Source of the DNA: Parcubacteria group bacterium GW2011_GWA2_47_21
GTDB taxonomy: Bacteria > Patescibacteriota > Minisyncoccia > Phycocordibacterales > DSPV01
Length of the DNA: 64,000 bases
Assembly: GCA_001000545.1 (NCBI GenBank)
Contig: LCOC01000005.1
Coordinates: forward strand, 10,013 to 74,012
Reading direction: 5' to 3'
Position numbers and translations under genes: made by a program
In this document: piece after piece, positions 3,455 to 49,282 of the stretch
Layout of the letters: every line of letters begins with the position of its first letter
How positions within the stretch are numbered: position 1 is the stretch's first letter
The notes under the pieces: generated by a model
The model's input: only the letters and a program-made list of their open reading frames with translations
What the model was told of the DNA's origin: nothing
Database searches by the model: none

Positions 3455-3546
3455 ATGATTTTAATTGAATATAATCGCTTAATTTGTTTGGGAAAACTTT
3501 TGAACGGGGGGATTCCAAGAGGACGAATTTACTTTCTGGCAAGAAA

Positions 3547-7620: not shown

Positions 7621-8064
7621 ATGATAAGAACAAAAGTACTGTTAGTGTCTGGAAGGAGAGGCGGCAAAACCAAGGAGGAGATTAAAACCTTAATGAAAGA
7701 TGAGTTAGAGCAAGCGGGGCACGAAGTGCTCATTGCTCAAAATGTTGACGATGCGTTATACCTTGTCTACCACGAAGAAAACGTGTCGGTAATGATAACT
7801 GAGGCGGACATCACTGGTTATCAAGACGGCGTGGAGTTAATCAGGGCGGTCCATGATATAAACCACGGAACGACTAAGACCGTTCTCACCAGCGGCCGGT
7901 ATGTGGAAGAGTTAATTGAACTCGCCCACCTCGCTGGTGCCACCGCTTACTGGTCAAGACCGTCCAGCATGAAGAGTTTGGTCCACCTCATTGCCCAAAT
8001 TCTTCAAGACCAAGGAGAAATGGCGGCTGAAGCAATGGTCGCGACCGCGCCGGCAATGGCGTAA
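7621..8064 (+). CDS. CheY-like receiver-domain protein, atypical (stand-alone, degenerate acidic pocket)
   Basis: 147 aa; receiver-like spacing of conserved T (TKTVLTSG) and K-equivalent region (GATAYWSRP, K replaced by R); putative phospho-Asp in ITEAD; no output domain. Confidence 0.5.
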   Translation: MIRTKVLLVSGRRGGKTKEEIKTLMKDELEQAGHEVLIAQNVDDALYLVYHEENVSVMITEADITGYQDGVELIRAVHDINHGTTKTVLTSGRYVEELIELAHLAGATAYWSRPSSMKSLVHLIAQILQDQGEMAAEAMVATAPAMA

Positions 8065-12551: not shown

Positions 12552-12620
12552 AAGACGGATACGAGAGATTTTTAATTCCCGAGTGATTTAACGGTTTCCC
12601 CCATCAAATTCATAATCCCG
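12462..12620 (+). repeat. Direct repeat copy A (~158 bp): intact 3' end of the membrane/spermidine-synthase-like gene plus downstream junction
   Basis: TGGTGGCCAGAAAAAGTAACGACAAATTTGCCCATCTTAACCGACGACTTCGCTCCGGTAGAAAAATATGTGACAAAATCAATGTTCTGAAAGACGGATACGAGAGATTTTTAATTCCCGAGTGATTTAACGGTTTCCCCCATCAAATTCATAATCCC; recurs at 13924-13992 and 14782-14939. Confidence 0.9.
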
Positions 12621-12782
12621 AAAGGCTTTGTTGAATAATTCATTTTATGGCTCTAAATAAGAGCATTTTGGGCAGTCAAAAAATGGGGCAAAATAGAGAT
12701 ACGGCTTAAAATAAGGATATTTTGGTTGAATTATTCAACAACGCCATCCCGAAAACCGAAAACATTATCTTGCCGTAAAAAA

Positions 12783-13835
12783 TTACAAAAAATAATTCGC
12801 CTGTGAAAAATCGTGTTGTTCCAAAAATAATTTTTTTGCCAGCGAGGCGTTTTGCAGTTCATAAAACAAAATCATGGCTTTTTTGTATTCCGTCTCGCCA
12901 GCGCTCCGCAAAGAAAGCGGACAGGTATTGGCCGCCAAAAGACAAGCATTCGCCAAGAGCCGCGCCGTCCTTTTATTGCCATCTTCAAACGGCTGAATAT
13001 AAGAAATGACGATAAGAGCAATCAGCGCTTTGTTCCAGGGATCGCCTGCCTCGTTTATTTTTTCAAGCCCAAGCTCCAACGCTTCTTTAATTTGGTATTT
13101 ATTGTCCAAAGGCCGATAATTCGTGCCGGTAATGCCAACCGGTTTGCCCCGTAAACCAAAATTCACATTCAAACCATCAACCAAAAACCGATGAATGTCC
13201 TCCGTATCGCGCAAAGAAACCGTCTCAAATTTTTGCTTATTGCCAAAAATATAATCAAGGGCTTTCTTATGATTAAGAATCATTACCGCCTCTTCCTTCG
13301 GATGCCCCGCGGCCTCTCTGTTTTCCTTAATCAAGGTCTCGGTGTCCAAAAGAGTGTAAGTGTTGCCCTCAATTTTTGAGGACTTCCATGAAAACTCTAT
13401 GGTAATTCTCTCAAATTCCTTTTTTAAAATATCGGGCGGTAAACCAGCGATTCTTTTTTTATAATCGCCGTCTTTCGTTTTTAACGCAGCCAATTCTTTT
13501 TGATTTATCAAACCGCCGAGTTTTTCCACTGCCGTTGTCTTAAACGAAATAGGCGCCGGCGCGCGTTGGTCCGGTTCTTGCGCCAGATAACTCTCAAAAT
13601 CCATCGGTTTCAGAAACGGATGCGGGGCAACCGCCCGGTAAGCCAAAGAGCGGCCTTTGCCAAACTTTTCCAAAACGCCAGCCGCCACCAAAACCGAAAA
13701 TTCTCTGGCGACGGTTTCTCGGGAAAATGGTTCATTTTGTTCGGCAAAAAAAGCCACCAAATCAGAATTTCTAACGGAAGCTCGGGTGGCGGCAAATTCA
13801 AGTATTTTTTGTTGTCTTTTAGTTAATTGTGTCAT
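12783..13835 (-). CDS. Fic/Doc family protein (AMPylator-type toxin-like) with N-terminal winged-helix region
   Basis: Fic motif HxFx(D/E)GNxR present as IQPFEDGNKRTARLLANA; 350 aa. Confidence 0.75.
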   Translation of the reverse strand: MTQLTKRQQKILEFAATRASVRNSDLVAFFAEQNEPFSRETVAREFSVLVAAGVLEKFGKGRSLAYRAVAPHPFLKPMDFESYLAQEPDQRAPAPISFKTTAVEKLGGLINQKELAALKTKDGDYKKRIAGLPPDILKKEFERITIEFSWKSSKIEGNTYTLLDTETLIKENREAAGHPKEEAVMILNHKKALDYIFGNKQKFETVSLRDTEDIHRFLVDGLNVNFGLRGKPVGITGTNYRPLDNKYQIKEALELGLEKINEAGDPWNKALIALIVISYIQPFEDGNKRTARLLANACLLAANTCPLSLRSAGETEYKKAMILFYELQNASLAKKLFLEQHDFSQANYFL

Positions 13836-13923
13836 AAATTAACAACTATTCGCGTCAAGATGGCACAATTATACTGCCGTGTCTGACATAGAAGCAAATT
13901 CCGCGCAGAAGAATTCCTGACGG

Positions 13924-13992
13924 AAAATTTGCCCATCTTAACCGACGACTTCGCTCCGGTAGAAAAATATGTGACAAAATCAATGTTCTGAA
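13924..13992 (+). repeat. Direct repeat copy B (68-bp core of the junction repeat)
   Basis: AAATTTGCCCATCTTAACCGACGACTTCGCTCCGGTAGAAAAATATGTGACAAAATCAATGTTCTGAA identical to the core of copy A. Confidence 0.9.
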
Positions 13993-14047
13993 GAACAGAT
14001 GCGGATAATAATGGGATATGTCCTTAAAATTTTTCGTATTTATACGG

Positions 14048-14389
14048 TTATTCTAAATATTCCTTAATACGAAGTGCCGCTGCCGGCACATTATTCTTCA
14101 GTGTGTACCAGATGGTCGGCAAGTCAATGCTGAAATAATCGTGCGCCACAACATCGCGAAGTCCTGCCATCTGTTTCCATGGAATATCAATAGATATTTT
14201 AATTGAATCAGGCACTTTCTTGGCAAGTTCTCCAACAACTTCCAGTTGCATAATAACGGCGCTCTGGCTTTTGCTATCCACAGAAAAATCTTCATACGAC
14301 ATGCCTTCGGTAAAAGCGCGAATTTTAGCAAAGGCGTCAAGCATCAGACGAAGATACGCCGTGTCATCCTTGTTTTTATCTGGTCCCAT
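14048..14389 (-). CDS. HepT-like (DUF86) toxin of HepT/MNT type II TA pair
   Basis: R-x4-H-x-Y motif as LRDVVAHDY; overlaps upstream MNT gene by 14 bp. Confidence 0.7.
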   Translation of the reverse strand: MGPDKNKDDTAYLRLMLDAFAKIRAFTEGMSYEDFSVDSKSQSAVIMQLEVVGELAKKVPDSIKISIDIPWKQMAGLRDVVAHDYFSIDLPTIWYTLKNNVPAAALRIKEYLE

Positions 14390-14675
14390 AAATAATTTTC
14401 AAATCACGATAAATATAATCGCGAAAATACGGCACGATGGCTTTGTCAGAAATCAAATCAACCGGTTTTTGCAATCGTTCTGATAATTCTTCTTTAAACC
14501 CGACAAAATCCCACACGGAAAACGGCCGGTCTCCCAGAGAAACAAGAATATCCACATCACTGTCAGGTCTCGCATCACCGCGAGCGTATGACCCGAAAAT
14601 TCCGGCATAGCGAACTTCATATTTCCCCAAAATTGGTCTTATCGTGTCACCAATGTTTTGTATTGTCCTAGTCAT
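14376..14675 (-). CDS. MNT-type minimal nucleotidyltransferase antitoxin
   Basis: GSxxRG...DxD signature IFGSYARGDARPDSDVDILV. Confidence 0.75.
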   Translation of the reverse strand: MTRTIQNIGDTIRPILGKYEVRYAGIFGSYARGDARPDSDVDILVSLGDRPFSVWDFVGFKEELSERLQKPVDLISDKAIVPYFRDYIYRDLKIIYGTR

Positions 14676-14781
14676 ACAAAGATAATATCACAAGGAATGC
14701 GTGTTTGACAAAAAAAATAATAGCCAAAATACATCACTTGCGCCTAGAGAGCATAGAGAAAGGTTAAACCGCCGCCTTTCC

Positions 14782-14939
14782 TGGTGGCCAGAAAAAGTAA
14801 CGACAAATTTGCCCATCTTAACCGACGACTTCGCTCCGGTAGAAAAATATGCGACAAAATCAATGTTCTGAAAGACGGATACGAGAGATTTTTAATTCCC
14901 GAGTGATTTAACGGTTTCTCCTATCAAGTTCATAATCCC
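14782..14939 (+). repeat. Direct repeat copy C (~158 bp, 4 mismatches vs copy A), abutting first pilin-like gene
   Basis: Same 158-bp sequence as 12462-12620 with GTG->GCG and three substitutions in the distal part; its minus strand encodes the C-terminal tail (IMNLIGETVKSLGN*) of ORF 14892-15083. Confidence 0.9.
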
Positions 14940-15083
14940 AAACGCCGAGAACATTATGAACATTCCGATGATACCGAAGATAATCGCTAATCCGCCCTCT
15001 TTCCTCTTCGCCGCGTCATCACCTTTGGCTACATAACGAAAGACCCCCCAAATAAATACCAGAAAAGCCAGTGACAGAAGCAA
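14892..15083 (-). CDS. VirB2/TrbC-like small membrane protein paralog, N-terminally truncated (possible gene fragment)
   Basis: Two hydrophobic helices around loop VFRYVAKGDDAAKRKEGG; lacks signal peptide and overlaps 3' end of next paralog by 65 nt. Confidence 0.35.
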   Translation of the reverse strand: MLLSLAFLVFIWGVFRYVAKGDDAAKRKEGGLAIIFGIIGMFIMFSAFGIMNLIGETVKSLGN

Positions 15084-36959: not shown

Positions 36960-37030
36960 GGGAGGAAAAGGATTTGCTTTGCCTCGGCTCTTTTTCCAAA
37001 ACCACGGGGATTTGGTATCCGCCGCGCCGG
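36960..37030. repeat. Inverted repeat, left copy (71 bp) flanking UDG-like/radical SAM cassette
   Basis: GGGAGGAAAAGGATTTGCTTTGCCTCGGCTCTTTTTCCAAAACCACGGGGATTTGGTATCCGCCGCGCCGG; exact reverse complement at 39184-39254. Confidence 0.9.
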
Positions 37031-37203
37031 TGTTGACGAAAAAACTGGAGATAGTTGGCGTAGATCGTGTGAGCGATTTTCGACACTTGGTTTTTTCTGC
37101 GACAATATCAAAATTATAAATTCCGATATATCGAGAAGATTCGTATGCTTCCCACTCTTCACGCGCGCTTCGCAAGCGATGTCCGTCCGCATCTCTTCCA
37201 TCT

Positions 37204-37686
37204 TCATGAGACAAGTCGTTCAATAACGGCTTTCACTGCTTGAACATATCGATTTTTTTCCTTTCGCTTGTACACCATGATGTACGAGGGATGTTGAATA
37301 GGCACATACCATTTCCCTCCATACTCAAAAGAGCGATATCTGTAAGACAATTTTGGCATCTGTAGTCCAATCTGACGAAGAACAAATGTTGCTGTCTTGT
37401 TACCAAGCAATAAGACAACGCGAGGATTAACTGTCTGAATCTCAACTTGTAGTTCAGGATAGCACAGCACACACTCTTCAGGTGTCGGATACCTCAACTT
37501 CCCCTTGGAATCCAATGGAGGAAACTTTACAAGGTTTGTTTTGTAAAAGCTTGCATGGCGGCATCGTGCCTCAATTTCTGCCACCAGCTTACCGGTGTTT
37601 GTGTCTATATGAAGAGGAGCGCAAATCTCGGCATTAATTGCCTTTTTCGCAGAAAGACCAACCCACATTACATTTGCGTTTTTCAT
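37204..37686 (-). CDS. Uracil-DNA glycosylase superfamily-like protein (family 4/5-like, non-canonical motif A)
   Basis: UDG-fold pattern: hydrophobic core VVLLLGNKTATFVL and C-terminal HPS motif (PIQHPSYI); N-terminal motif region VGLSAKKA instead of GEGPG. Confidence 0.45.
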   Translation of the reverse strand: MKNANVMWVGLSAKKAINAEICAPLHIDTNTGKLVAEIEARCRHASFYKTNLVKFPPLDSKGKLRYPTPEECVLCYPELQVEIQTVNPRVVLLLGNKTATFVLRQIGLQMPKLSYRYRSFEYGGKWYVPIQHPSYIMVYKRKEKNRYVQAVKAVIERLVS

Positions 37687-37749
37687 CGGTTTATTCCATT
37701 AGTTTCGGTAATGAATTTCCGAAGAATCTCATCGGACACTTCGGAAAAA

Positions 37750-38910
37750 TTACCACTCGTGAAATTGAAAGACGCTCGTCCTAAAGTTAACGCCATTTTT
37801 CACAGACGATTCTTTGAGTCCCGCCGCTAAATCGTAAGACATCCGCATATCATCAATGGTTTCAGTTTCAAAACCAAAAATGAAATACCCTTTTACATTT
37901 ATGCCGGCGAGGAATAATCTTTCGATGGTCCGTTTGATCAAATCCACATCCGAAGTTTTGTGAATCATTTTGAGTATGCGCGGAGATCCAGACTCAATAC
38001 CAATGAACACCTCCTTACAACCTGACCGCTTCAGTTCAAGTAATTGCGCATCACTCAATTTATAAAATGATAACACATGAGCCATGGCACGCCATGTTAC
38101 GGGAACATGCCCAAACATACGAACCGCACGCTCCACACTATCAGCATTCCTTAGGAATAAATCGTCAAGAACCCGCACCGAATCAACATTCGGGTACAGT
38201 TCGCATATCATCGCCACTTCATTTGCCACGCTTTGAGCATTTCTTTCTCTAATCGGTGTTTCCCTGTTCAGAGATCGAGCCGCTGAACAAAACGCGCAGT
38301 TATACATACACCCGCGACTGGTCACAATACTCACTTCGTTGAATCCTAACGTGTGTCGCAACGGCTGATTTACGAAGAATGACCTGTCTAAGGGAATATT
38401 GGAAATATCCTGAGGGAAATACGGTGAACTCACAGATACCGTAATAACCCGCTTATTACCTTTCTGACTAATGATATCAAGGGGCTTCCCCTGCACAATC
38501 GCGCTGACCACAAAATCCCCTTCTCCAATGACTATATCCACGGGACAAGAAGTATTCCAATGCAATATAGTTTTATAGAGATTCTTCGTAGCTAATCCAC
38601 CGATGATGAACCGTACTCCACCCTTAATTGATTCAACTATTTCACGAACCAAGTGCAAATTAGTTGTGAATACATTCAGAGCCACATAGCACGGACGCTT
38701 TTGACGAATAACCGCCAAAAGAATTTCAAGAGAAATGTTTGCCTCAACAGTATCCAACAGTTCAACGGTTATTCCATTACTCCAGAGATCCGTAGCTATA
38801 TACCCTAATCCAAGTGGTGGTAAAGAATCTTCATCGTATCCGTCCACCTTATCTCGAAATAAGGGTGAGTTGATAATCAAAACATCGAGCGATTGACTTT
38901 CTTCTTGCAT
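37750..38910 (-). CDS. Cobalamin-binding-domain (class B) radical SAM protein
   Basis: N-terminal B12-binding-like Rossmann segment (LPPLGLGYIATDL...VRFIIGGLATKN...DIVIGEGD) followed by radical SAM CxxxCxxC (GCMYNCAFCSA). Confidence 0.7.
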   Translation of the reverse strand: MQEESQSLDVLIINSPLFRDKVDGYDEDSLPPLGLGYIATDLWSNGITVELLDTVEANISLEILLAVIRQKRPCYVALNVFTTNLHLVREIVESIKGGVRFIIGGLATKNLYKTILHWNTSCPVDIVIGEGDFVVSAIVQGKPLDIISQKGNKRVITVSVSSPYFPQDISNIPLDRSFFVNQPLRHTLGFNEVSIVTSRGCMYNCAFCSAARSLNRETPIRERNAQSVANEVAMICELYPNVDSVRVLDDLFLRNADSVERAVRMFGHVPVTWRAMAHVLSFYKLSDAQLLELKRSGCKEVFIGIESGSPRILKMIHKTSDVDLIKRTIERLFLAGINVKGYFIFGFETETIDDMRMSYDLAAGLKESSVKNGVNFRTSVFQFHEW

Positions 38911-39183
38911 GACACTTTCCTCCTTTTTCTGTGTTGTGAGTGTTCTGGGTTTGCTGTACTGGCGGATAAACGCCGTCGCTTTTCTTCATTCACGAACGAG
39001 CCGTGAATGAGTCGATTTATCTTTCTTGAGCGAATGTTGAGTTGTCTTTTGATCCACCATGTTTTTATCTCCTTTCTTTTTTAGATTGTCAAAAAACAGC
39101 TTTGACTGATTGCTATTCTACATTAGTTTTTGATTTTGTGCAAGGCCGCCCGCCGAAAATCCGCCGCGCATTCCTCCCCACAC

Positions 39184-39254
39184 CCGGCGCGGCGGATACC
39201 AAATCCCCGTGGTTTTGGAAAAAGAGCCGAGGCAAAGCAAATCCTTTTCCTCCC
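39184..39254. repeat. Inverted repeat, right copy (71 bp)
   Basis: Reverse complement of 36960-37030; the two copies enclose 37031-39183. Confidence 0.9.
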
Positions 39255-39326
39255 TTTTGAAAATAGGTGCGAGCTTGGTACAATAGACACACCATAAGGA
39301 GATTAGGAGGAATTTTTCCTATTTCA

Positions 39327-39355
39327 CAATGGGCTTCCGCAATGGAAGCCCATTG
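39327..39355. repeat. Hairpin repeat element CAATGGGCTTCC-GCAAT-GGAAGCCCATTG, copy 1
   Basis: 31-bp identity (CACAATGGGCTTCCGCAATGGAAGCCCATTG) with 46290-46320. Confidence 0.9.
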
Positions 39356-39643
39356 AATTTCCGCAACGCCGCGCGCTTCGCGCGCGTGAAGTGTCAGGTT
39401 CAATCCGAAGATTTTTTGAGCGAACGATTTTTTGAGAGAAAGAGGGGCGAAGACATTTAATATAATGCTTGCCCCACGCCACCCGTGCGCGCATTATGAA
39501 AACTTTGCCGATTTTCAAATCGGCAACTCCATAAGATACGAGTTAAGTTCCTATAACTTCTTCACCTCGTTAGAAACGCTCTCAATACCGCAAAGATTTT
39601 ATTTTTCATTATTTCAATCAACCGGCGATTGGTGTCGGCTATT

Positions 39644-42637
39644 TTAGCCTTCATTATGTCTGTATAAATCTCCAAGTTTCAAAACGCTCCGATTCTCCCA
39701 CCAGCTTATATCCTTTTTCCCAACTTCCAGATTTTCTAGAATGAATAAATAACGCCATTCCTCTTTTGCCGGATCTGCCTCGGTTAGCATCGAGACATAT
39801 TTCTCGCCCCGCTCTTTTTTCGCCTTGTCTCGCTCGTCCATTCGTCCCTTTACTTCAATAATATAATTTACTACTCTATCGCCTTCATTTGCGCGTGCGA
39901 TAAAATCTGGAAAGTAATTTACATAAAACCCTTGCCAAAGATACTCAAAGTTATATCCCACGCCCTGCTGATGATTATAAATCCAGCCACTCACGTCCTC
40001 ACACGCATCTAATAATTGTGCGGCGCGCAACTCGTCATTATTAGCCATGCATTGCTTATCAAAACCGGCTCGCTCGGGATTCTCAAGGGCATTTTCAAAA
40101 ATCACCTGGTATGGCTCAATAACCCTGCTTTCTAAAATATCAAATTTGTCCGTCGCTGGTTTCTCATTTGAGCGCAAGCCGTTGATAAATTTGACGAGTT
40201 CCTGCTTCACCGCCGCCATCACATCGTCATTGAATATATTTTTCTTCACGATCTTGTCTGTCTTTTCATCCACCGAATCCAACCGCAAGGACGCACCGGC
40301 AGGAAGATCAAATACCCGCTTTTCCAAAAATCGCTTCACCACATCGAGTACGCGCAATTTATCGGAATGAGACAAACGCAATTCATTTAAAATCGGCCGG
40401 ACATAGCCAGAAATAAGTAACCGATCCAGCCCGTAATAATTTGCTGATTGTTCAAACTCAAATTCAAGCCCCTTTTCAATATCTTTCTCAAACTGTGTTT
40501 TGATCTTTAGTTTATCGGCAAATTCAATCCATTCAAGTCGCTTTGCCAACTCCGGCAAATCTGCCTCGCGGAAATTATCATGCCAAGTTTTTACATGCTC
40601 AATCAGCCCTAAAAATTTAATCATTCTCACATTACGAGCCTTCCGCACATCCGCATCAGAGAGCGGATTTACAACTGTGTATACTGGCGGTTCTTTCTCT
40701 CCTGCGTCCACTTCATCAACAATGTCGTCTATCTCGTCAATAATCGCTTGAAATGAGGGATGCTGGATAACATAGAGATTTTCAGGTTTGGAATATACTG
40801 CCCCCTCATCATCCATTTCCGGTTGATGCATTTTGCGAAGCCCTCGGCCCAATGTCTGCTCCGCTAGGGTCCGTGAATCACACGGCCGAAGTGGCACAAT
40901 GGTTTTCACATTCCGCACATCCCAGCCCTCTTTCAGCATCAAAACCGCGACAATCACGTTAAATGGATTCTCCACTACTTCGCCCTTCAATTGTGGATCC
41001 TCAATATATTCCTTATCTATCAAATGCACGAGCTTACGCACTTTGTCCCACTCCTTGTCGTTTTTAAGTTCCTTTTCGCCGATGTGTATTTGCACAACAG
41101 TTGTTTTGTCATCTTTTACAAACAGTGTTTGCTTGGCTTCGTCATCATAAAATCCTTTCACCGGCAGATTGTCTTGTGATAAGTCTTTGCCCTCATCGTC
41201 AATCTCCCGATACACTAAATAATTATATATCTGATTGGCTTCTTTTCTATCGTTACAGATAATAAAAAGAATTTGTTTGCGCTTATCGCCTTCTTGGTCA
41301 AAAACTTTTTGATTTTCCTGCCAGCGTTTGATACCTGTACGGAGCAGATTTTCGTACTTCTCCCAAGCGCATAGCTTTTCGTTATTGATAATACCGCGTG
41401 CCTCATCGCCCTCGTACACTTTCACCTTTTCCAGTTTTGGGAGTTTTATTATGCCGTCCCGTTTCGCATCGCCGAGCGAATACAAATCAACTGTGTGTTT
41501 GAATAAATCCATCCAACGGTAACGAATCTCCTCATTATCGTTCTTTTTCGTTTTATGAGACCCCTTTTCTTCAAAAAGCGTGGCCGATAAATCAATCTGT
41601 AAGCCAACTTCGCAAAGCTTATCTATATTTCTTATAGAGCGAATCCAACCCAATTCTTCGGCCGCCTGCTTTTCTTTCACGCCAATTTCCTTCAGGTTCT
41701 TTGTTTTCTTTTCATACTCCTTGTGCTTTTCTTCGTCGTGAACATGATGTGCCTCGTCGTTGATGACGAGAACATTCGATGAATTCTTAAAACTATCAAC
41801 CAATGCTCGCTTTTGGTTCTCTAACTTTTTGGGCATTGCCGTTTCAAAAATGCCAAGTTCCTTCGATAATCCCACGCTTTCTTCTTCACCTTCGTTTCCC
41901 GATTCCCTATAGAGCTTGTGGATGTTCGTTACTATAAGCGCACCTTCATCCGGCGCAAGCTCGCTTGGCACGGTTTCCGGCGAATACACTTTGAGATTCC
42001 AATATCGCTCAAGTTCTTTTGGAACTACCGGATCACCGTGGAAAATATCCGGCCTTTCATCTGACGGCGAAAAGTCCTCCAAAAGACGGTCAAGCACAAA
42101 CAAGTTCGGTGCAATCAAAATACTATGCTTGCCAATGTTTAAATGTTTTTCACCTTCAATCACTGCGTTTAAGTAACTCCATGCAATTACCAAGCCCATG
42201 ATTTTAGTCTTGCCGGAACCTGTTGCAAGTTGCGCGCCAAGCTTGGTCCAATCGTCGCGTTGGGGCACAATTTCAAAATCGATCACTTTGGAGATGTCCT
42301 CACGCCGACGAACCCCACAAACTTCGTAAAGATAAATAAAAGTTTCAAGTGCACGCCTCTGATGCGGCCAGTATTTGAAGCGATAACTTTTCCCGTCCCT
42401 TCCTTTTAACTCATGCGGAAATGGACGAAACCAATGTCTCAAAAGTAAATCCGTTGTTTCTGAAATATTCTTTTCAAACGGCATAACTGGCTTGTATCTT
42501 GGTTGCTCTTTCGGATAGGGCAGTTTAGCGCTTTGCAAAGCAAACCTTCGCCAAGCATCTACACGCTCACGGAGTTTTTGGATGACGATTTTCTGCGCTG
42601 GCAGAGTTTTCTCAGTTTTAGATGGTTTTGTAGGCAT
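39644..42637 (-). CDS. res: Type III restriction-modification system restriction subunit (Res), SF2 helicase + nuclease
   Basis: 997 aa; Walker A LATGSGKTKIM, DEAH box VINDEAHHV, helicase motifs; last gene of C-mod-...-res operon. Confidence 0.8.
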   Translation of the reverse strand: MPTKPSKTEKTLPAQKIVIQKLRERVDAWRRFALQSAKLPYPKEQPRYKPVMPFEKNISETTDLLLRHWFRPFPHELKGRDGKSYRFKYWPHQRRALETFIYLYEVCGVRRREDISKVIDFEIVPQRDDWTKLGAQLATGSGKTKIMGLVIAWSYLNAVIEGEKHLNIGKHSILIAPNLFVLDRLLEDFSPSDERPDIFHGDPVVPKELERYWNLKVYSPETVPSELAPDEGALIVTNIHKLYRESGNEGEEESVGLSKELGIFETAMPKKLENQKRALVDSFKNSSNVLVINDEAHHVHDEEKHKEYEKKTKNLKEIGVKEKQAAEELGWIRSIRNIDKLCEVGLQIDLSATLFEEKGSHKTKKNDNEEIRYRWMDLFKHTVDLYSLGDAKRDGIIKLPKLEKVKVYEGDEARGIINNEKLCAWEKYENLLRTGIKRWQENQKVFDQEGDKRKQILFIICNDRKEANQIYNYLVYREIDDEGKDLSQDNLPVKGFYDDEAKQTLFVKDDKTTVVQIHIGEKELKNDKEWDKVRKLVHLIDKEYIEDPQLKGEVVENPFNVIVAVLMLKEGWDVRNVKTIVPLRPCDSRTLAEQTLGRGLRKMHQPEMDDEGAVYSKPENLYVIQHPSFQAIIDEIDDIVDEVDAGEKEPPVYTVVNPLSDADVRKARNVRMIKFLGLIEHVKTWHDNFREADLPELAKRLEWIEFADKLKIKTQFEKDIEKGLEFEFEQSANYYGLDRLLISGYVRPILNELRLSHSDKLRVLDVVKRFLEKRVFDLPAGASLRLDSVDEKTDKIVKKNIFNDDVMAAVKQELVKFINGLRSNEKPATDKFDILESRVIEPYQVIFENALENPERAGFDKQCMANNDELRAAQLLDACEDVSGWIYNHQQGVGYNFEYLWQGFYVNYFPDFIARANEGDRVVNYIIEVKGRMDERDKAKKERGEKYVSMLTEADPAKEEWRYLFILENLEVGKKDISWWENRSVLKLGDLYRHNEG

Positions 42638-42708
42638 TGTGGATAACTATTGATTTTTAATAAGGGCTTGCTACAATACAGATGATCGTAAGATCACGGA
42701 TTTTAGAG

Positions 42709-43485
42709 CTAAGGGGCCCCAGAAATGGGGTCCTTTGTGCGTTTACCGTTATACTCCTTTTTCCAACAAATAAAATCTCTGATATTAAAAATATCAAATA
42801 TCCCCAAACCGCTTGTTTTGAGTTCGTTTAATTCCCTAGAGATTCGGCCGGCGGTTGCGAATAAAACAACCTTTTTGCCCACTTTAAGCAACCTTTCTAA
42901 GGGATCGGCGAAATCACTATCTCCGCTCCATAGTATAAAAGTTTCGGCGCTGTTTCGCTCACAATCAAGAAGCATATCAACTCCGATTTCAACATCAAAA
43001 TTACATTTCATATCCTCAATAAAATACTCCCCTTTTTTATTCATATCCTTGAAACGCTCATTCAAATATTCAATGGTCGCAATTTCATATTTCTTTAAAA
43101 GCGCCCGGCGAATAAACTGACTAACCAATACCGTTGAATCAGGCAATATACTGGAAACATCAATGGAAAAATTCATAATTTTTACCGGCTTTGTCCGAAG
43201 AATGTATTTGCAGTTCTCTGCTTCTGTTTTTTCTTTCTCTGATCTTTCATTTCCAGCCAAATAACCATTATAAAAATTAACTGCTTCAACTGTATCAAAA
43301 GAACCCAGAAATTGTTTTAATCTTTTAAGTTCAATATGCCAACCAAGTTTTTCACTCCACGGGCGCACGTTCGCATAATCAATATAGACACGAGTTTTTG
43401 CGCTAAAAATACTATCGAGTTGGCTAATAATTTCTTGCTGGTCCTTGGCAATTTTTTCAATCCTTTCTGTTTTTGGTGTGAACAT
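42709..43485 (-). CDS. NYN-domain (LabA-like, PIN-related) nuclease-family protein
   Basis: NYN blocks VYIDYANV, DVEIGVDML, LWSGDSDFADPL. Confidence 0.65.
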   Translation of the reverse strand: MFTPKTERIEKIAKDQQEIISQLDSIFSAKTRVYIDYANVRPWSEKLGWHIELKRLKQFLGSFDTVEAVNFYNGYLAGNERSEKEKTEAENCKYILRTKPVKIMNFSIDVSSILPDSTVLVSQFIRRALLKKYEIATIEYLNERFKDMNKKGEYFIEDMKCNFDVEIGVDMLLDCERNSAETFILWSGDSDFADPLERLLKVGKKVVLFATAGRISRELNELKTSGLGIFDIFNIRDFICWKKEYNGKRTKDPISGAP

Positions 43486-43497
43486 ATGGGTAGGTAA

Positions 43498-43710
43498 TTA
43501 GCTTATTTTCTGGTATCGATAACTATATCGAATATTGTCGTTAAGGAATTGCCCCGGCGATGAGGCCTGAAAAAATTGCCGATATAAATGATCCGGCACA
43601 TTAAAATACTGATATATATCGCCCGAAGTAAACTCCACCTCTAAAGTACCCAACTGCCGATCGTAGCCAATTGAGCGAATATTTGAGGACGATACTGATA
43701 CTCTATGCAT
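43498..43710 (-). CDS. KTSC-domain protein
   Basis: 70 aa; IRSIGYDRQLGTLEVEFTSGDIYQYFNVPDHLYRQFFQASSPGQFLNDNIRYSYRYQKI matches KTSC domain pattern. Confidence 0.6.
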   Translation of the reverse strand: MHRVSVSSSNIRSIGYDRQLGTLEVEFTSGDIYQYFNVPDHLYRQFFQASSPGQFLNDNIRYSYRYQKIS

Positions 43711-43712
43711 AG

Positions 43713-45800
43713 TTATTTTATCACGACTTTCGTCATCACAATCCCGTCGTTTCCGAAAATGTCTACGACCTTGACGGCAATGGTATATTCGCCGGATTTT
43801 TCGTAAGTATGGAAGGCCTTAAAAATCAAATCCTCAACCACTTTTTTGCCTTTTCGCTTGCGGAAACTCTGCCACTCATTTTCAAAAATAGGCCCATGTC
43901 CGTCTTCTTCATTCTTCAAATTTTCGTAATTCCAATCTACCGCCCAGAAATCCACAAAGCTCTGCCAGCTTTTTTCTTTTTCCAGCCACTTTTTGAGCTC
44001 ATCCCTTCGTTCCGGCTTCTGGCTTTCAAGAAAACTCTCCACATCCACCTCAAGCCCAGAAAGTTCAATGCTGGCCTCTTTGCCATCGACAACTTTGTGA
44101 ACCTTTACCGCAAGTGGCGCGAAAAAAGCAATATTGGGCATATCACTCACTTTCTCTGGACTCTTAACGCCTTGTTTAATGAGCTCCAAGCGTTTTTTCA
44201 CTTCTTCAATGGCGCTTGCCGGAATCATGCGTACAAAAACCTGCACGCCAAATTCTTCTTTCGCCTTTTCAACTGCCTGATTAAGGTGCGCGGTAAAATC
44301 CGCCGAAAGCACATAACACTTTTTAAAATCGGTGTCTTTGACTTCTTTGGCAATCGCTTGGATTTGCTCGGAAACTATCGGCTGGGAAAGCGGACCAACA
44401 TGAATCCACGCGCCTCTTTTCTTGCCGTGTAGTAATTTTGAATATGGCGTGTACTCTCCGCCAAAAAGTTCAATAATTGCTTGCCGATAAGCATCGGCTT
44501 GATTCCCAACCTGAATCGGGTCCCATTTCACGCCGCGTTGATAATAACCCATATTCTCAACCGTAAACGGACGGACTTTATAAACCCCCGCATTCTTTTC
44601 ACTTTTTTGCTTGCCGTTTAGCTCAATCAATCTTTTTCGTGCAGTATGAACAGCAAATTTTGAGTTATCAATCCCAATCCATGTGTAATTTAAACCGTCT
44701 GTCATTTGCTCAGTAGCTTTACAAGTTGTACCAGAGCCCATGAAAGAGTCCAAAATCACACCATTTTTAGGACAAGACGTTTCAATGATTCTCAATAATA
44801 GCTCAATTGGTTTTTGAGTAGGGTACCCTGTACGCTCAAGAGCTTTTGGATGCTCTTTATTGATTAACCAGTAGTCTCTTAGTGGGTTACCTTCTGGATC
44901 TTTGTAAATGACACGAGCGAATTTATTACTTTTAATTAATGCTTTTATATTTTCCTTATTTTCACTTCCCTTATAAACGATTAATTGTTTCTCACCATTT
45001 TTAAGTAAGTTGGTGGTATATCCTCTGTCAAGCGTTAGTTGTCTTTTGTCATCAATTTCTCTAAGTGATCGAAAATAATAATCATCGGTTTTGCTATATC
45101 GTAGTATGACATCATGGTCTTTTTGAAAATCGTTAGATGGAGCTGGCCACTTATCATAACACCAGACCACTTCGTTTCTAAAGTTTTGATATTCAAAAAT
45201 TTCATCCATCAATACTTTTACATAGTGAGATGTGTGCCAATCTAAATGCACATAAATTGAACCTGTAGGGGCGAGAAGCTCTTTCATTAAAAGCAACCGC
45301 TCGCGCATCATTTGGAGAAAACTATCCAACCCATTTTTCCAGGTGTCTTTGTAGGCAATCGTTTCTATAATCGTCGGCTCTTTTACTGACATCACGCCCT
45401 CCTCCTCATCCACCTCAATATCAATAGAATTTTCTGCCACAAAATCGTTCTGTACCATAAACGGCGGATCTATGTAGATAAGGTCAATTTTATTGCGGTA
45501 TCTATGTTCGCCAGAGATGGAATCTTTTTCGTCTAAAAGCGTCTTGAGCGCAACTAAATTATCGTTTGTCCAAATAAGCCGATTTTTAGGAAAATCCGCT
45601 GATTTAATAATTTTACCGGTCCCAATTTGTCCTTCGTGAAAAAATCTAAGGGTTTCGCCCTTCTTTTCTTCTTCGTTTGATTTATGCGGATAAACAATTT
45701 CCACTACTTGCGTAGGCACGGCTTCCGCAAGCGTCTTTTTGTCCATGCCGACATAGGCGAGCTTTGGCTTCTTTGGTTTTAGTTCAATTTCTTTTTTCAT
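43713..45800 (-). CDS. mod: Type III restriction-modification system methyltransferase subunit (Mod), beta-class N6-adenine MTase
   Basis: Mod hallmark WTNDNLVALKTL, motif IV DPPF (LIYIDPPF) before motif I FMGSGTT, TGYPTQKP. Confidence 0.85.
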   Translation of the reverse strand: MKKEIELKPKKPKLAYVGMDKKTLAEAVPTQVVEIVYPHKSNEEEKKGETLRFFHEGQIGTGKIIKSADFPKNRLIWTNDNLVALKTLLDEKDSISGEHRYRNKIDLIYIDPPFMVQNDFVAENSIDIEVDEEEGVMSVKEPTIIETIAYKDTWKNGLDSFLQMMRERLLLMKELLAPTGSIYVHLDWHTSHYVKVLMDEIFEYQNFRNEVVWCYDKWPAPSNDFQKDHDVILRYSKTDDYYFRSLREIDDKRQLTLDRGYTTNLLKNGEKQLIVYKGSENKENIKALIKSNKFARVIYKDPEGNPLRDYWLINKEHPKALERTGYPTQKPIELLLRIIETSCPKNGVILDSFMGSGTTCKATEQMTDGLNYTWIGIDNSKFAVHTARKRLIELNGKQKSEKNAGVYKVRPFTVENMGYYQRGVKWDPIQVGNQADAYRQAIIELFGGEYTPYSKLLHGKKRGAWIHVGPLSQPIVSEQIQAIAKEVKDTDFKKCYVLSADFTAHLNQAVEKAKEEFGVQVFVRMIPASAIEEVKKRLELIKQGVKSPEKVSDMPNIAFFAPLAVKVHKVVDGKEASIELSGLEVDVESFLESQKPERRDELKKWLEKEKSWQSFVDFWAVDWNYENLKNEEDGHGPIFENEWQSFRKRKGKKVVEDLIFKAFHTYEKSGEYTIAVKVVDIFGNDGIVMTKVVIK

Positions 45801-45801
45801 A

Positions 45802-46005
45802 TTATTTCAAAAGCTCATCGCTTGAAACACCAAGAGCTTTTGCCAGTTTCGTAATAGTTGAAAGTGTAGGATTCGTCTTTCCGTTTTCTATGTTGCTTAC
45901 AAACCCTTTATCCACGGCAAGTATCCGGCCAATCTCACCTTGGGATATGCCCTTCGCGGTTCTAATGCATTTTAGATTTTTGCCTAGTTTCGCAGATTCG
46001 TTCAT
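45802..46005 (-). CDS. XRE-family HTH regulator, controller (C-protein)-like, immediately upstream of mod
   Basis: 67 aa, HTH ISQGEIGRILAVDKGFVSNIENGKTNPTLSTITKLAKALGV; stop 2 bp before mod start codon. Confidence 0.6.
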   Translation of the reverse strand: MNESAKLGKNLKCIRTAKGISQGEIGRILAVDKGFVSNIENGKTNPTLSTITKLAKALGVSSDELLK

Positions 46006-46063
46006 TATTCATAGTATATCCTGTTGTTGTATTCTACACTATCCGTTGTGGTATACTATAACT

Positions 46064-46291
46064 ATGCCTAATTACTTTCTCTACGCTCGCAAAAGCACCG
46101 ATGTTGAAGACAAGCAAGTCCGGTCTATTGACGACCAACTTACTGTCTTGCGAGCGTTGGCGAAAGAGCAAAATTTCTCCATCACCCGAGAGTTCATAAA
46201 GAGGCAATCCGCGAAAATGCCCGGACACCCCGTCTTTGATGAAATGCTCGCCCTGATTGAGAAAGGCGAAGCGCGCGGCGGTCCACAAACA
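46064..46291 (+). pseudogene. Serine recombinase (resolvase/invertase-type) N-terminal catalytic-domain fragment, interrupted after ~75 aa by the hairpin repeat
   Basis: MPNYFLYARKSTDVEDKQVRSIDDQLTVLRALAKEQNFSITREFIKRQSAKMPGHPVFDEMLALIEKGEA matches Y-x-R-x-S-T...Q...L serine recombinase N-terminus; similarity ends where palindrome 46290-46320 begins. Confidence 0.6.
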
Positions 46292-46320
46292 CAATGGGCT
46301 TCCGCAATGGAAGCCCATTG
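46292..46320. repeat. Hairpin repeat element, copy 2
   Basis: Identical 31-bp core to 39325-39355. Confidence 0.9.
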
Positions 46321-46549
46321 TTTGGCTGGTAAAAAATCTTTCAGTTGGATTATGGTGGGCGGTATAGGGCTCGACCCTTACAGGGTCAGTACACCTTTCC
46401 CATTTTCTCGCGATAAGAATCGCTCGAAAATATGGGAGAAGGTCTTCAAATCCTCTCTCGCAACCAAAATCTTTTGCCCATCTAAATATATCAAAAAACT
46501 TGTTTGTTACAACTCAAACCAATTTTTTCAAAAAGTCATTTTCAAAAAC

Positions 46550-46636
46550 GGAAGGGGTGGGATTCGAACCCACGTGGGGCTTGCGCCCCCAGCCGATTTC
46601 GAGTCGGCGCCGTTATGACCGCTTCGGTACCCTTCC
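46550..46636 (-). tRNA. tRNA-Ser (anticodon CGA), class II
   Basis: Manual fold of reverse complement: acceptor GGAAGGG/CCCUUCC, anticodon stem GCCGA/UCGGC loop CUCGAAA, variable stem-loop GGGGGC-GCAA-GCCCC, T-arm GUGGG-UUCGAAU-CCCAC; 3' end faces the R-M island. Confidence 0.75.
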
Positions 46637-46700
46637 AACTGGTAGCTTTAGACCCCTGCCCGCCGAAGTCTCGGTGTAGGCGGGACTCAGCCACCCTTCC
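46637..46700 (-). other. tRNA-like 5' fragment (GGAAGGGUGGCUGAGU...) directly upstream of tRNA-Ser, not foldable into a complete tRNA
   Basis: First 16 nt resemble acceptor+D-arm start of a class II tRNA with the same acceptor 5' strand as tRNA-Ser; remainder forms an unrelated GC hairpin; no matching 3' acceptor strand. Confidence 0.5.
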
Positions 46701-46794
46701 CATAGAACGATAGCAATTTTTTGAATTTTTTTCAAAAAATGCTATTGTATGTCTGCCGTTTTTAGTTTTTCGCTTTTCGTTTTTAATTTACCGC

Positions 46795-46866
46795 GGCCCT
46801 ATCGTCTAACGGTTAGGACACAGGCTTTTCAAGCCTGGAATCGGGGTTCGATTCCCCGTGGGGTCA
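46795..46866 (+). tRNA. tRNA-Glu (anticodon UUC)
   Basis: Manual fold: D-arm GUCU-AACGGUUA-GGAC, anticodon stem CAGGC/GCCUG loop UUUUCAA, T-arm CGGGG-UUCGAUU-CCCCG; acceptor has two G-U pairs. Confidence 0.65.
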
Positions 46867-46926
46867 AAGTTTTTGAGCATGGCGAGAAAACTTTGAGCCC
46901 AAGCAAGCAAACTGCTTGGCTTGCGT

Positions 46927-47037
46927 CGGGGAATCGAACGGCGGAGTATGTCGCGAGTTTCGAGCGACGACGAGCCGGTGCCCAGACAAATTTTTGCGAC
47001 GGCAAAAATTTAGTCGCGGGCGATTCCCCGTGGGTCA
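46927..47037. repeat. Partial tRNA-Glu T-arm/3'-end-like copies downstream of tRNA-Glu (one inverted ~46927-46947, one direct ~47021-47037)
   Basis: CGATTCCCCGTGGGTCA (direct) vs tRNA 3' end TCGATTCCCCGTGGGGTCA; CGTCGGGGAATCGAACGG is an inverted GTTCGATTCCCC-like segment. Confidence 0.55.
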
Positions 47038-47896: not shown

Positions 47897-49282
47897 ATGG
47901 TGATTTTAGGCGTTGAAACGAGTTGTGACGAAACGGCTCTGGCTTTAATAGAAGCCGAGGACGATTCGGTGCGGGTCCTGGCAGACATCACGCATTCGCA
48001 AGCGGCGCTTCACGCAAAATACGGTGGCGTGTTTCCTAATCTTGCCAAACGGGAACACAGCCGAAACCTGATTCCATTGCTGAAAAATCTCTTAGCGGAA
48101 TCAGGTTTCGGAAATCCCAAATCACAAGCGCCCCGCCTGCCAATCGGCGGGCAGGCAAATTCCCTGCCTGCGCCGAATCGGCTTCGGCAGGCAGGCAAAC
48201 AAATCCAAAGTGTTAAATCCAAAACACTAAACGCTAAACGCTCTACGCTAAACGCTATCTTCGAGCGGGAGCCGGAGTTGTGGGAACAATTTGAGAGGTT
48301 TATCCCGACAATTGAAAAGCCGCCGATTGATGCGATTGCAGTAACCTACGGACCCGGGCTTGAGCCGGCGCTGTGGGTCGGCATTAATTTCGCGAAAGCG
48401 CTCGGAGTGATTTGGAACATCCCGGTGATTCCAACGAATCATATGGAAGGGCACATCGTTTCCGCGCTGTTGCGCAGAAACGCAAACTCTAAATCCGAAA
48501 CTCTAAATTCCCTGCCTGCGCCGAATCGGCTTCGGCAGGCAGGCAAACAAATCCTAAATTCAAAATCTCAAATACTAAATGCTACACGCTATACACTACA
48601 CGCCATACGCTTTCCTGCTATTGCTTTACTCATCTCCGGCGGGCATACAGAGTTGGTGCTGGTTAAAAAGCTGGGACAATACGAAATTATTGGCGAGACG
48701 AAAGATGATGCGGTCGGCGAGGCGTTTGATAAAGTGGCGCGCATCCTTGGACTTCCCTATCCTGGAGGACCGGAAATCTCCGCGCTGGCAGAGCGGGCGC
48801 GGCAAGCAAAACAAGGTTCGACCTTGGAGTCGGGAAAAAGGTCGAACCTTGTTTTGCCAAGACCCATGCTCCATTCGGGCGACTACCACTTTTCTTTTTC
48901 CGGTTTAAAAACTGCGGTGCTGTACACGGTAAAAAAGATTCCGAGGGTCACGGCCGCAATCAAACAAGCGCTCGCGAAAGAGTTTGAAGATTCCGTCACG
49001 GAAGTGCTCATTTCCAAAACAACCAAAGCCATCAAAGAATACGAAGCAAAGACCTTAATCATCGCCGGCGGGGTAATCGCCAACAAACACATCCGCTCCG
49101 CCTTTGAGGAACTTCGCGCATCTGCCTTCCCTTCCCTTGAGCTCCTCATCCCCGAAATCCCCCATTCCACCGACAACGCACTCATGATCGCCGTTGCGGG
49201 GTATCTCAACCTAAAATCCGGCCGCCGACCAGCAAAGGGAAACGAGTTTATAATCATCGCCTCCGGCCGCGTTCGACTGTAA
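47897..49282 (+). CDS. tsaD: tRNA N6-adenosine threonylcarbamoyltransferase TsaD (Kae1/Gcp family) carrying in-frame repeat insertions
   Basis: ILGVETSCDETA, NHMEGH, LISGGHTELVLV, DDAVGEAFDKVARILGLPYPGGP, FSFSGLKT conserved blocks; interrupted by two copies of a 49-bp palindromic repeat and AT-rich simple repeats (peptide NSLPAPNRLRQAGKQI occurs twice). Confidence 0.85.
   Translation: MVILGVETSCDETALALIEAEDDSVRVLADITHSQAALHAKYGGVFPNLAKREHSRNLIPLLKNLLAESGFGNPKSQAPRLPIGGQANSLPAPNRLRQAGKQIQSVKSKTLNAKRSTLNAIFEREPELWEQFERFIPTIEKPPIDAIAVTYGPGLEPALWVGINFAKALGVIWNIPVIPTNHMEGHIVSALLRRNANSKSETLNSLPAPNRLRQAGKQILNSKSQILNATRYTLHAIRFPAIALLISGGHTELVLVKKLGQYEIIGETKDDAVGEAFDKVARILGLPYPGGPEISALAERARQAKQGSTLESGKRSNLVLPRPMLHSGDYHFSFSGLKTAVLYTVKKIPRVTAAIKQALAKEFEDSVTEVLISKTTKAIKEYEAKTLIIAGGVIANKHIRSAFEELRASAFPSLELLIPEIPHSTDNALMIAVAGYLNLKSGRRPAKGNEFIIIASGRVRL
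48158..48206. repeat. Palindromic repeat copy 1 inside tsaD (AATTCCCTGCCTGCGCCGAATCGGCTTCGGCAGGCAGGCAAACAAATCC)
   Basis: Identical 49-mer at 48506-48554; nested palindrome CCTGCCTGC...GCAGGCAGG. Confidence 0.9.
48506..48554. repeat. Palindromic repeat copy 2 inside tsaD
   Basis: Same 49-mer as 48158-48206. Confidence 0.9.

Follow-up and report, generated by a model that had tools for sequence, protein, structure and literature searches.

Why should the mod and res genes of a type III restriction-modification (R-M) operon be parted by genes for a KTSC-domain protein and a NYN nuclease-family protein? The question is raised by a locus of Parcubacteria group bacterium GW2011_GWA2_47_21 (GenBank assembly GCA_001000545.1) that lies within the stretch of 64,000 nucleotides analysed here (contig LCOC01000005.1, positions 10,013 to 74,012), referred to below as the window; coordinates are those of the window unless another locus is named. 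A first-pass annotation had suggested that the two genes could be an accessory or second-line defence module, for example one licensed by Mod and Res, or else a regulator of Res. We find that they are not native to this type III system. Together with a predicted antisense RNA gene, they form a cassette that has been inserted precisely, and in a lineage-specific manner, between mod and res. This is probably a mobile unit, with the nuclease restrained by the RNA, that may act as an addiction or stabilisation element or else provide a back-up effector of abortive infection.

The operon consists of five minus-strand open reading frames (ORFs), whose domain assignments have E-values from 1e-12 to 1e-68. 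Their order, HTH-mod-KTSC-NYN-res, had been read correctly in the first-pass annotation:

45802 to 46005, minus strand: first gene of the operon, a small C-protein-like regulator of the HTH_3/XRE type, 67 aa (Pfam HTH_3, E = 2.9e-14; PADLOC HTH_VI, 2.4e-13).
43713 to 45800, minus strand: type III Mod methyltransferase, 695 aa (N6_N4_Mtase, PF01555, 2.2e-41; PADLOC MTase_III, 2.5e-68).
43498 to 43710, minus strand: KTSC-domain protein, 70 aa (PF13619, 2e-23, full profile), 2 nt past the mod stop codon.
42709 to 43485, minus strand: LabA-like NYN nuclease-family protein, 258 aa (PF01936, 8.8e-14).
39644 to 42637, minus strand: type III Res, 997 aa, with an SF2 helicase and a C-terminal PD...EVK nuclease motif (ResIII, 7.5e-12).

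The gaps between successive genes are 1, 2, 12, and 71 nt; the last three are as first annotated, and the first had been put at 2 nt. The type III hallmark of mod followed immediately by res does not hold in the window, where the junction is interrupted. Relatives of the window Res form a clade of 71 to 100% identity that includes members of the Candidate Phyla Radiation (CPR) at 75 to 92%, and the state of the mod-res junction was examined in eight places among them:

L091/L092: Res 81% identical, mod and res adjacent (counted as one independent relative because the Res protein and the downstream genes are the same).
L093: Res 75% identical, mod and res adjacent.
L098: Res 79% identical, mod and res adjacent.
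L099: Res 82% identical, mod and res adjacent.
L101: Res 86% identical, mod and res adjacent.
L102: Res 82% identical, mod and res adjacent.
L100: Res 92% identical, junction with a different two-gene insert.

The earlier premise that mod and res are normally neighbours is borne out by these cassette-free relatives, in which the two genes are spaced by 1 to 3 nt; the window has 1,073 bp more. Cassette-free junctions read '...VIVK* CC ATG(res)' and '...VVIK* T ATG(res)', and that of the window reads '...VVIK* CT', followed by KTSC, NYN, and TTATCCACA, and then by the res ATG. The comparison therefore delimits the insert:

42638 to 43710, minus strand: inserted cassette, 1,073 bp, made up of KTSC, NYN, the antisense RNA gene with its promoter, and the TTATCCACA end (junction comparison).

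The Mod proteins of the empty-site relatives L093 and L091 are 64 to 69% identical to that of the window, and in a Myxococcus relative (45% identical) mod and res overlap. When the window is compared with 80 other loci, DNA similarity extends from ~10 nt before the KTSC ATG to 26 to 71 nt past the NYN stop codon, regardless of the flanking genes. The L100 insert (positions 233 to 771 of that locus) encodes two proteins that lack a Pfam match, one of 73 aa and one of 103 aa, the latter a putative membrane protein with a hydrophobic stretch; since a different insert occupies the same place, the mod|res junction acts as a site that accepts accessory cargo. In the other type III family that carries the cassette, one or two variable ORFs lie between mod and KTSC, none of them with a Pfam domain except for one DUF6864. 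We regard the insertion and the boundaries of the cassette as established, and these structural statements as near-certain. A separate observation concerns L093, in which genes for a different NYN protein (12517 to 13473 of that locus; 318 aa, with a weak PLDc_2 match besides NYN) and for a GmrSD-like protein are found just downstream of res; this R-M family thus repeatedly has NYN genes in its vicinity, and these are of more than one kind.

A database search for similar neighbourhoods, which the first-pass annotation had proposed, was productive. In a one-genome-per-species scan, 395 genomes had a relative, and 80 loci were fetched. The KTSC-NYN pair appeared in three retrieved contexts, namely, within another type III operon, behind the hsdS gene in a type I operon, and beside dnaB and rpoB. 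Ten other type III loci carry the pair, with KTSC 64 to 80% and NYN 69 to 79% identical to the window proteins, the corresponding figures being 27 to 32% for Mod and 25 to 28% for Res. KTSC lies upstream of NYN in loci whose NYN is at least about 64% identical to that of the window; NYN homologues below about 62% identity come without KTSC and keep the RNA. R-M neighbours were seen in 23 to 24 of the 45 non-redundant loci with KTSC-bearing cassettes versus 1 of the 33 KTSC-less modules of NYN and RNA (Fisher p = 2.9e-6), the neighbours of the latter being mostly housekeeping genes. The R-M contexts of the KTSC cassettes comprise two unrelated type III families, type I operons (after hsdS, at the operon end), an Eco57I/MmeI-like type IIG enzyme, and an EcoRI-type methylase with GmrSD/HNH. 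Other KTSC cassettes are found in operons for pyruvate kinase, Mur ligase/DegT, glycosyltransferases, an ABC transporter, ALAD, and UvrD/AddA-type proteins. In 40 of 43 loci, KTSC is preceded by a gene that reads in its own direction; for KTSC-less modules, the upstream gene is co-directional in 17 cases and opposed in 15. The next gene typically starts 61 to 78 nt past NYN, right behind the RNA promoter. No promoter is conserved upstream of KTSC in these loci, which have only, in some cases, a TGaTAAAAT-like box. The preference for R-M operons is specific to the KTSC-bearing variant, the RNA goes with NYN, and NYN with its RNA also stands alone elsewhere.

These data retain one half of the original proposal, that of a recurrent accessory module in R-M operons, and remove the other, that of an integral part licensed by Mod and Res, given the precise insertion and the unrelated hosts. 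The first-pass annotation had also named an independent mobile insertion, with its own promoter and terminator and a neighbourhood found nowhere else, as evidence that would speak against it; the cassette is such an insertion, but its neighbourhood is found elsewhere. We consider it unlikely that KTSC-NYN is a second-line effector physically licensed by Mod/Res, or a Res regulator, in one complex with the type III enzyme. Tight co-directional gene packing, the strong R-M enrichment of the KTSC variant, the protein-protein role of the KTSC arm in SIR2-HerA (PMC11472057), and the PrrC precedent (10.1101/2024.01.29.577857) would agree with such a complex. However, the closest Mod/Res relatives do without the cassette, which at ~75% identity is also present in type I, IIG, and II systems, in a type III family of 27% identity, and in pyruvate kinase, Mur ligase, glycosyltransferase, and ABC-transporter operons; interfaces matched by co-evolution to every one of these partners are not possible for a single conserved cassette.

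What had been read as a 71-nt gap between NYN and res corresponds to a predicted convergent promoter and most of a predicted antisense RNA gene:

42650 to 42677, plus strand: antisense RNA promoter, TTGATT-16 nt-TGc-TACAAT (extended -10), directed into the NYN 3' end (promoter scan).
42684 to 42746, plus strand: predicted cis-antisense RNA of ~62 nt (covariation, covariance model, and folding; predicted ends).
42638 to 42646, minus strand: TTATCCACA, a DnaA-box consensus; the last 9 nt of the cassette, which abut the res ATG just upstream of the -35 of the RNA promoter.

The earlier description of the five genes as one operon has to be qualified, as this near-consensus promoter fires against it. 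The conserved G at 42684 is the likely start of the RNA, which would end near 42746 and thus take in the NYN stop codon along with the last ~35 coding nt. In the window, the RNA has a 5' hairpin whose loop is GUAA (42683 to 42696); beyond the conserved linker UUUUAGAGCU comes a GC-rich terminator hairpin, which includes a G.U pair and has UUUGUGCGUUU behind it. The last codons of NYN and the 71-nt gap are conserved at the DNA level even where the NYN ORF stops earlier. The consensus layout on the strand opposite NYN is a TTGACT-like -35, a 16- to 17-nt spacer, TGn-TAnnnT, ~6 nt, a hairpin of 4 to 5 bp with a GNRA loop, a single-stranded linker (..UUCUAGAGCUU..), a 9-bp GC-rich hairpin, and UUUGC(G/U)UU.

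In a motif-anchored alignment of 72 loci, RNAalifold found 15 base pairs, 12 of which show compensatory changes. Pairing extends to 98.2% of the alignment cells, compared with 36 to 65% in slid controls, and 123 cells carry double changes versus 23.8 in shuffles (0 of 500 shuffles were as high). One stem position has G.U in 65 of the 72 sequences, which would be A.C if read on the NYN-sense strand, and on that strand pairing falls to 87.1%. The loop of the first hairpin is GNRA in 46 of 72 sequences, and most of the others have GNRA or UUCG with one extra closing pair. In the -10 element, T, A, and T are conserved in 71, 70, and 66 of the 72 loci, and the TG at -15/-14 in 52 and 47. The tail after the second stem is U-rich (median of 6 T in 10 nt), whereas on the NYN-sense strand no U run follows the hairpin. 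The minimum free energy of the window RNA is -29.6 kcal/mol (z = -5.0), that of the other strand -17.8 (z = -2.3). A covariance model has a single match in the window, at 42650 to 42753 (87 bits, E = 1.4e-17). Of 82 loci, 80 have exactly one match each, in every case convergent with NYN; there is no other in 1.2 Mb, and the two misses are contig ends; a further match adjoins the 48%-identical NYN of a viral-contig relative. A scan of positions 39000 to 47000 against Rfam 15 (E of 1 or below) returned only two tRNAs and no family for the antisense RNA. The linkage of the RNA to NYN is strict.

The same element could be viewed as a DNA recombination site, comparable to integron attC, or as a mere bidirectional terminator, with no RNA gene. 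Promoterless co-directional cassettes with a structured 3' end do resemble integron cassettes, and the hairpins would form in single-stranded DNA as well. Nevertheless, we find this reading extremely improbable, as the extended -10 is near-invariant and at a fixed distance, the GNRA/UUCG loops, G.U pairs, and U-rich tail favour one strand only, the hairpin on the NYN-sense strand has no U run behind it, sequence conservation is far above that of usual attC sites, and no integrase is among the neighbour families. A regulatory effect on res is suggested by the position of the promoter, which lies between NYN and res and fires against the operon, by the lack of a promoter or Shine-Dalgarno sequence of res within the 71-nt gap, and by the regulation of EcoRI through antisense RNAs (PMC3141266): the opposing promoter and RNA duplex might delay or dampen Res relative to Mod, replacing mod-res coupling. 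That this is what the module is for appears very unlikely, because the RNA follows NYN even where no R-M gene lies downstream or the next gene is on the other strand, type I loci have the cassette after hsdS at the operon end, and the RNA is linked to NYN, not to res. As for the DnaA-box-like site, TTATCCACA with at most one mismatch, in either orientation, occurs no more than 48 nt upstream of the -35 in 29 of 80 loci versus ~1% of random windows; it could be a regulatory site or the cassette end.

Within the PIN superfamily, the NYN protein falls among the LabA-like members; its acidic active site is intact, and its nuclease function is predicted. The acidic residues D36, D164, E166, D189, and D191 are invariant across 21 aligned sequences. 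Its AlphaFold model (mean pLDDT of 66) has a confident core, an insertion of ~60 residues modelled with low confidence, and an N-terminal helical extension; the best PDB match of the model is the LabA-like 2QIP (E = 1.1e-5), and a sequence search of PDB with the same protein gave no match. The PADLOC models for NYN and HEC-09 match the NYN core alone, in the case of HEC-09 with E = 1.6e-6 over residues 149 to 226 (profile positions 92 to 171 of 203). The database holds 1,860 relatives, of which the top 120 are all ~258 aa long, 76 to 99% identical, and mostly from Patescibacteria/Parcubacteria. In the 2017 classification of PIN domains, bacterial LabA-like NYN proteins were listed as of 'function unknown' and as probably RNA processing (PMC5499597). 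We infer that the window protein is a potentially harmful nuclease, most likely an RNase.

The KTSC protein contains IYQYF, the central YxY motif of this ~60-residue domain, and is homologous to the solved structures 7X8C (2.3e-14) and 4RGI and to the C-terminal arm of Paenibacillus HerA (8WIV). This arm domain has a protein-protein role in the SIR2-HerA defence complex (PMC11472057). Iyer et al. described KTSC as a DNA-binding domain that is coupled to HerA and an endoDNase in restriction-like systems (PMC9503650).

Several loci bear on how the cassette moves and decays. Copies of the 5' coding end of res, 42 to 120 nt long and 79 to 88% identical, lie just upstream of KTSC in three loci and suggest that the cassette spread between R-M loci by recombination that dragged res flanks along:

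L001, ~7680 to 7747: res 5'-end duplicate.
L007, ~7687 to 7728: res 5'-end duplicate.
L035, ~3463 to 3582: res 5'-end duplicate.

A search of the cassette ends gave no convincing left-end motif or terminal inverted repeat. A phage origin was considered and rejected, as 2.9 million viral contigs contained one true relative only. When an exact 18-mer of the RNA was searched for in metagenomes, 50 loci were retrieved. Of these, 47 had enough flank, and NYN ends beside the RNA in 35 of them; 7 of the 50 are chance matches that lack a covariance-model match. In five loci (L110, L112, L124, L145, and L146), the RNA gene is intact (85 to 104 bits) and NYN is reduced to its last 25 to 30 codons; these remnants begin at a similar point, near '..MIFDIQKIRDFICWKKE', and that of L146 is fused to a res 5' fragment. 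Among the loci examined, no intact NYN 3' end without the RNA was found. This asymmetry, RNA without NYN but no NYN without RNA, fits toxin-antitoxin logic and is also compatible with simple deletion scars.

A purely selfish, homing-type cassette, in which KTSC would bind DNA, NYN would cut it, and breaks would induce spread, with the R-M link due to co-transfer on mobile islands, could account for the precise intergenic insertion, for DNA identity of 70 to 80% over distant lineages, and for the res 5'-end duplicates. The DNA-binding role ascribed to KTSC by Aravind and colleagues (PMC9503650) and the setting of the R-M island, which is bracketed by inverted repeats beside a resolvase remnant and a tRNA gene, point the same way. 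Such a cassette is nonetheless distinctly unlikely in our estimate: left junctions display no target-site consensus, the NYN/PIN-like enzymes that have been studied are mainly RNases (PMC5499597), a dedicated antisense RNA is foreign to known homing endonuclease genes, and the R-M bias is confined to the KTSC variant, the KTSC-less form being scattered among housekeeping genes.

The reading that we prefer, a mobile cassette of KTSC, NYN, and RNA in the mod|res junction whose nuclease is restrained by the RNA, implies the following mechanism. KTSC and NYN would be transcribed from the host operon, here from the R-M promoter, because the cassette has no conserved 5' promoter of its own; translation of KTSC, which lies 2 nt past the mod stop codon, may be coupled to that of mod. 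Driven by a strong promoter, the convergent RNA would limit NYN either by forming a duplex with the 3' end of the NYN message or by transcriptional collision, in the manner of type I toxin-antitoxin pairs that overlap at their 3' ends. KTSC might be a small adaptor or neutraliser acquired along with the operon-embedded lifestyle. Release of NYN would stabilise the element, or kill or arrest infected cells upon failure of the R-M system, with a parallel in PrrC inside EcoprrI. The likely cost to the host operon would be a broken mod-res translational coupling and an opposing promoter ahead of res. As to a toxin or abortive-infection function proper, we see the chances as about even. A broader version, in which NYN and RNA are a new, widespread class of RNA-restrained nuclease toxins in Patescibacteria and the KTSC form is an R-M-wired abortive-infection back-up, released when a phage disturbs transcription of the R-M operon or of the short-lived RNA, with a promoter perhaps tuned via TTATCCACA, is put forward only tentatively.

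Several points weigh against this reading. The R-M context is not required for the module, as ~47% of KTSC cassettes lie in housekeeping operons, and the unrelated R-M partners (types I, IIG, and II and two type III families) argue against a specific physical partnership. The RNA is itself a prediction, as are its ends and the regulation ascribed to it, and a search for a second, trans target of the RNA within the KTSC-NYN message found only scattered 7- to 10-nt matches at chance level. No recombinase and no insertion-target consensus were found for the cassette. Most of the comparators are metagenome-assembled genomes, whose taxonomic labels are often unreliable. To our knowledge, no NYN or LabA-like protein has been demonstrated to be a toxin. 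HEC-09, the single NYN candidate to have been assayed as an embedded defence gene, gave no protection against any phage tried (10.1101/2024.01.29.577857).

Apart from the insert, the R-M system is an ordinary HTH-mod-res type III operon of a Patescibacteria-type clade. The PADLOC MTase_III alignment spans residues 69 to 689 of Mod. In Res, the motif 'PDF...IIEVKG' is readable in the translation near the C-terminus, and the protein aligns end to end with the BPTD_3080-family restriction endonuclease of NCBIfam (2.6e-70), at 237 bits, which is below the cutoff of 800. The regulator also matches the PADLOC model 'Control_protein' (3.7e-11), a small HTH protein within R-M operons. Its presence ahead of mod, which the first-pass annotation had called uncommon for a type III system, is not special to this locus: HTH genes also precede mod in the relatives L052 and L093 (HTH_17) and, weakly, in L091, so the regulator is a trait of the R-M clade that is unrelated to the cassette. 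Two further signals frame the operon:

46055 to 46083, minus strand: promoter-like site upstream of the HTH gene (promoter scan).
39505 to 39526, minus strand: terminator-like hairpin at the operon end, 118 nt past the res stop codon.

A 13-nt inverted repeat (85%; 46006 to 46018 and 46052 to 46064) overlaps the predicted -10 and the start region of the HTH gene and is a possible operator. The GC content of the locus, 0.38 to 0.45, is below that of its surroundings. Among Res relatives at 44 to 47% identity, from Myxococcota and Planctomycetota, the protein is ~1,180 aa long and in many cases carries a LexA-like Peptidase_S24 domain, evidently within the ~180 extra N-terminal residues (for example, 7001 to 10528 of L094, Myxococcus faecalis); such a fusion would be unusual for a type III Res subunit.

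The operon itself lies in what looks like the remains of a serine-recombinase-borne island:

39326 to 39381, no strand: left arm of a 56-nt inverted repeat, with a perfect 31-nt palindromic element, bracketing the R-M island.
46266 to 46321, no strand: right arm of the same repeat, with the 31-nt palindromic element, cutting off the resolvase fragment.
46064 to 46282, plus strand: truncated Resolvase N-terminal domain (Pfam, 1.3e-7, profile positions 2 to 63 of 145).
46548 to 46637: tRNA-Ser, ~230 nt from the right repeat arm.

The 31-nt element has only two copies in the window, one per repeat arm. In L099, a full large serine recombinase directly follows res. Two ideas were rejected, namely, that the resolvase fragment is the N-terminus of the L099 recombinase (the sequences are not similar) and that inversion of the island would rebuild a recombinase gene (the ORF at its flank does not resemble a recombinase). 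Directly beside the R-M island is a segment with a perfect 71-nt inverted repeat (36960 to 37030 and 39184 to 39254) that contains a UDG-superfamily gene (37204 to 37686) and a B12-binding radical SAM gene (37750 to 38910), the latter matching the PADLOC candidate PDC-M51A (2.4e-14); the segment, 36960 to 39254, may be another defence cargo. Elsewhere in the window, ORF 47897 to 49282 includes a 102-nt direct repeat of 86% identity (48157 to 48258 and 48505 to 48606), which encodes the duplicated peptide '..NSLPAPNRLRQAGKQI..', a repeated insertion in the protein. The region from 12462 to 14942 holds two copies of a 161-nt repeat and three of an 84-nt core, 93 to 99% identical and 0.9 to 2.3 kb apart.

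CPR bacteria have tiny genomes and few recognised defence systems besides R-M. A cassette that is present in ~400 species-level genomes and clearly prefers R-M operons would make up a considerable share of their conflict machinery that has so far gone unrecognised. It would also supply a new structured RNA family for which the covariance model is in hand and, for the LabA-like NYN nucleases, which have next to no established function in bacteria, a first candidate for an RNA partner. The cassette-plus and cassette-minus alleles of one R-M system are natural controls, and the mod|res junction as an accessory-cargo slot extends 'guilt by embedding' to type III systems. For annotators, there is a warning in that 'unusual operon architectures' may be recent insertions.

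Among known systems, the host operon compares with type III R-M of the EcoP15I type and the BPTD_3080-related clade, with which it shares the succession of an N6/N4 Mod and a Res with SF2 and PD-(D/E)xK domains, co-directional and behind one upstream promoter; it differs by the 1,073-bp foreign cassette in the junction and by the small HTH gene before mod. Control of EcoRI by antisense transcription (PMC3141266) has in common an antisense promoter inside an R-M operon, but the cassette RNA travels with NYN, not with R-M genes. Defence genes are often nested inside R-M, BREX, and DISARM operons, including the NYN candidate HEC-09 in Hma loci (10.1101/2024.01.29.577857). Like these embedded genes (PrrC in EcoprrI and HEC-09), the cassette presents a nuclease gene co-directional within an R-M operon and recurrent across hosts, in the case of HEC-09 with an NYN fold. 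Unlike them, it has an antisense RNA gene, is mainly found in Patescibacteria, and has about half of its copies outside defence operons; the HEC-09 model finds only a weak match confined to the NYN core, and the partner is KTSC, not an N-terminal HTH-like domain. With PrrC and RloC (an ABC-ATPase and anticodon nuclease in type I hsd loci), only the R-M embedding is common, the domains here being KTSC and NYN.

Type I toxin-antitoxin pairs with a convergent, 3'-overlapping antisense RNA include bsrG/SR4 and txpA/RatA, and nuclease toxins with a small RNA include SymE/SymR and RalR/RalA. The cassette resembles type I pairs in its predicted short, structured cis-antisense RNA, with its own promoter and terminator and overlapping the 3' end of the mRNA, and in the orphan RNA copies left after loss of the protein gene, but its protein is a 258-aa soluble NYN enzyme rather than a hydrophobic or membrane peptide of <60 aa, and there is an extra KTSC protein. 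It does not have the tandem upstream repeats of ToxIN-like type III toxin-antitoxin systems, as its RNA is single-copy, downstream, and convergent. A small-protein gene 12 nt upstream of a gene for a PIN-superfamily nuclease recalls VapBC (PMC5499597); however, KTSC is unrelated to VapB, NYN and RNA occur without KTSC in many genomes, and no conserved promoter or operator lies upstream of KTSC. From integron cassettes (attC with R''/L''-L'/R', plus an integrase), the module differs in its two separate short hairpins, promoter, and U-tail and in the lack of an integrase among the neighbour families. LabA-like NYN proteins (COG1432; 2QIP) share the Pfam family and fold, whereas the protein described here has an N-terminal helical extension and the ~60-residue insertion and represents a separate mobile subfamily that is strongly conserved and linked with an RNA gene. 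In the open-access literature, we found no publication that joins KTSC and NYN, links an NYN domain to an RNA antitoxin, or describes the cassette. Accessory nucleases embedded in R-M operons and antisense-RNA-controlled toxins are already known kinds; apparently new are the three-part cassette, its RNA, which covariation supports and Rfam 15 lacks, the association of an RNA gene with a LabA-like NYN enzyme, and the scale on which these occur in Patescibacteria.

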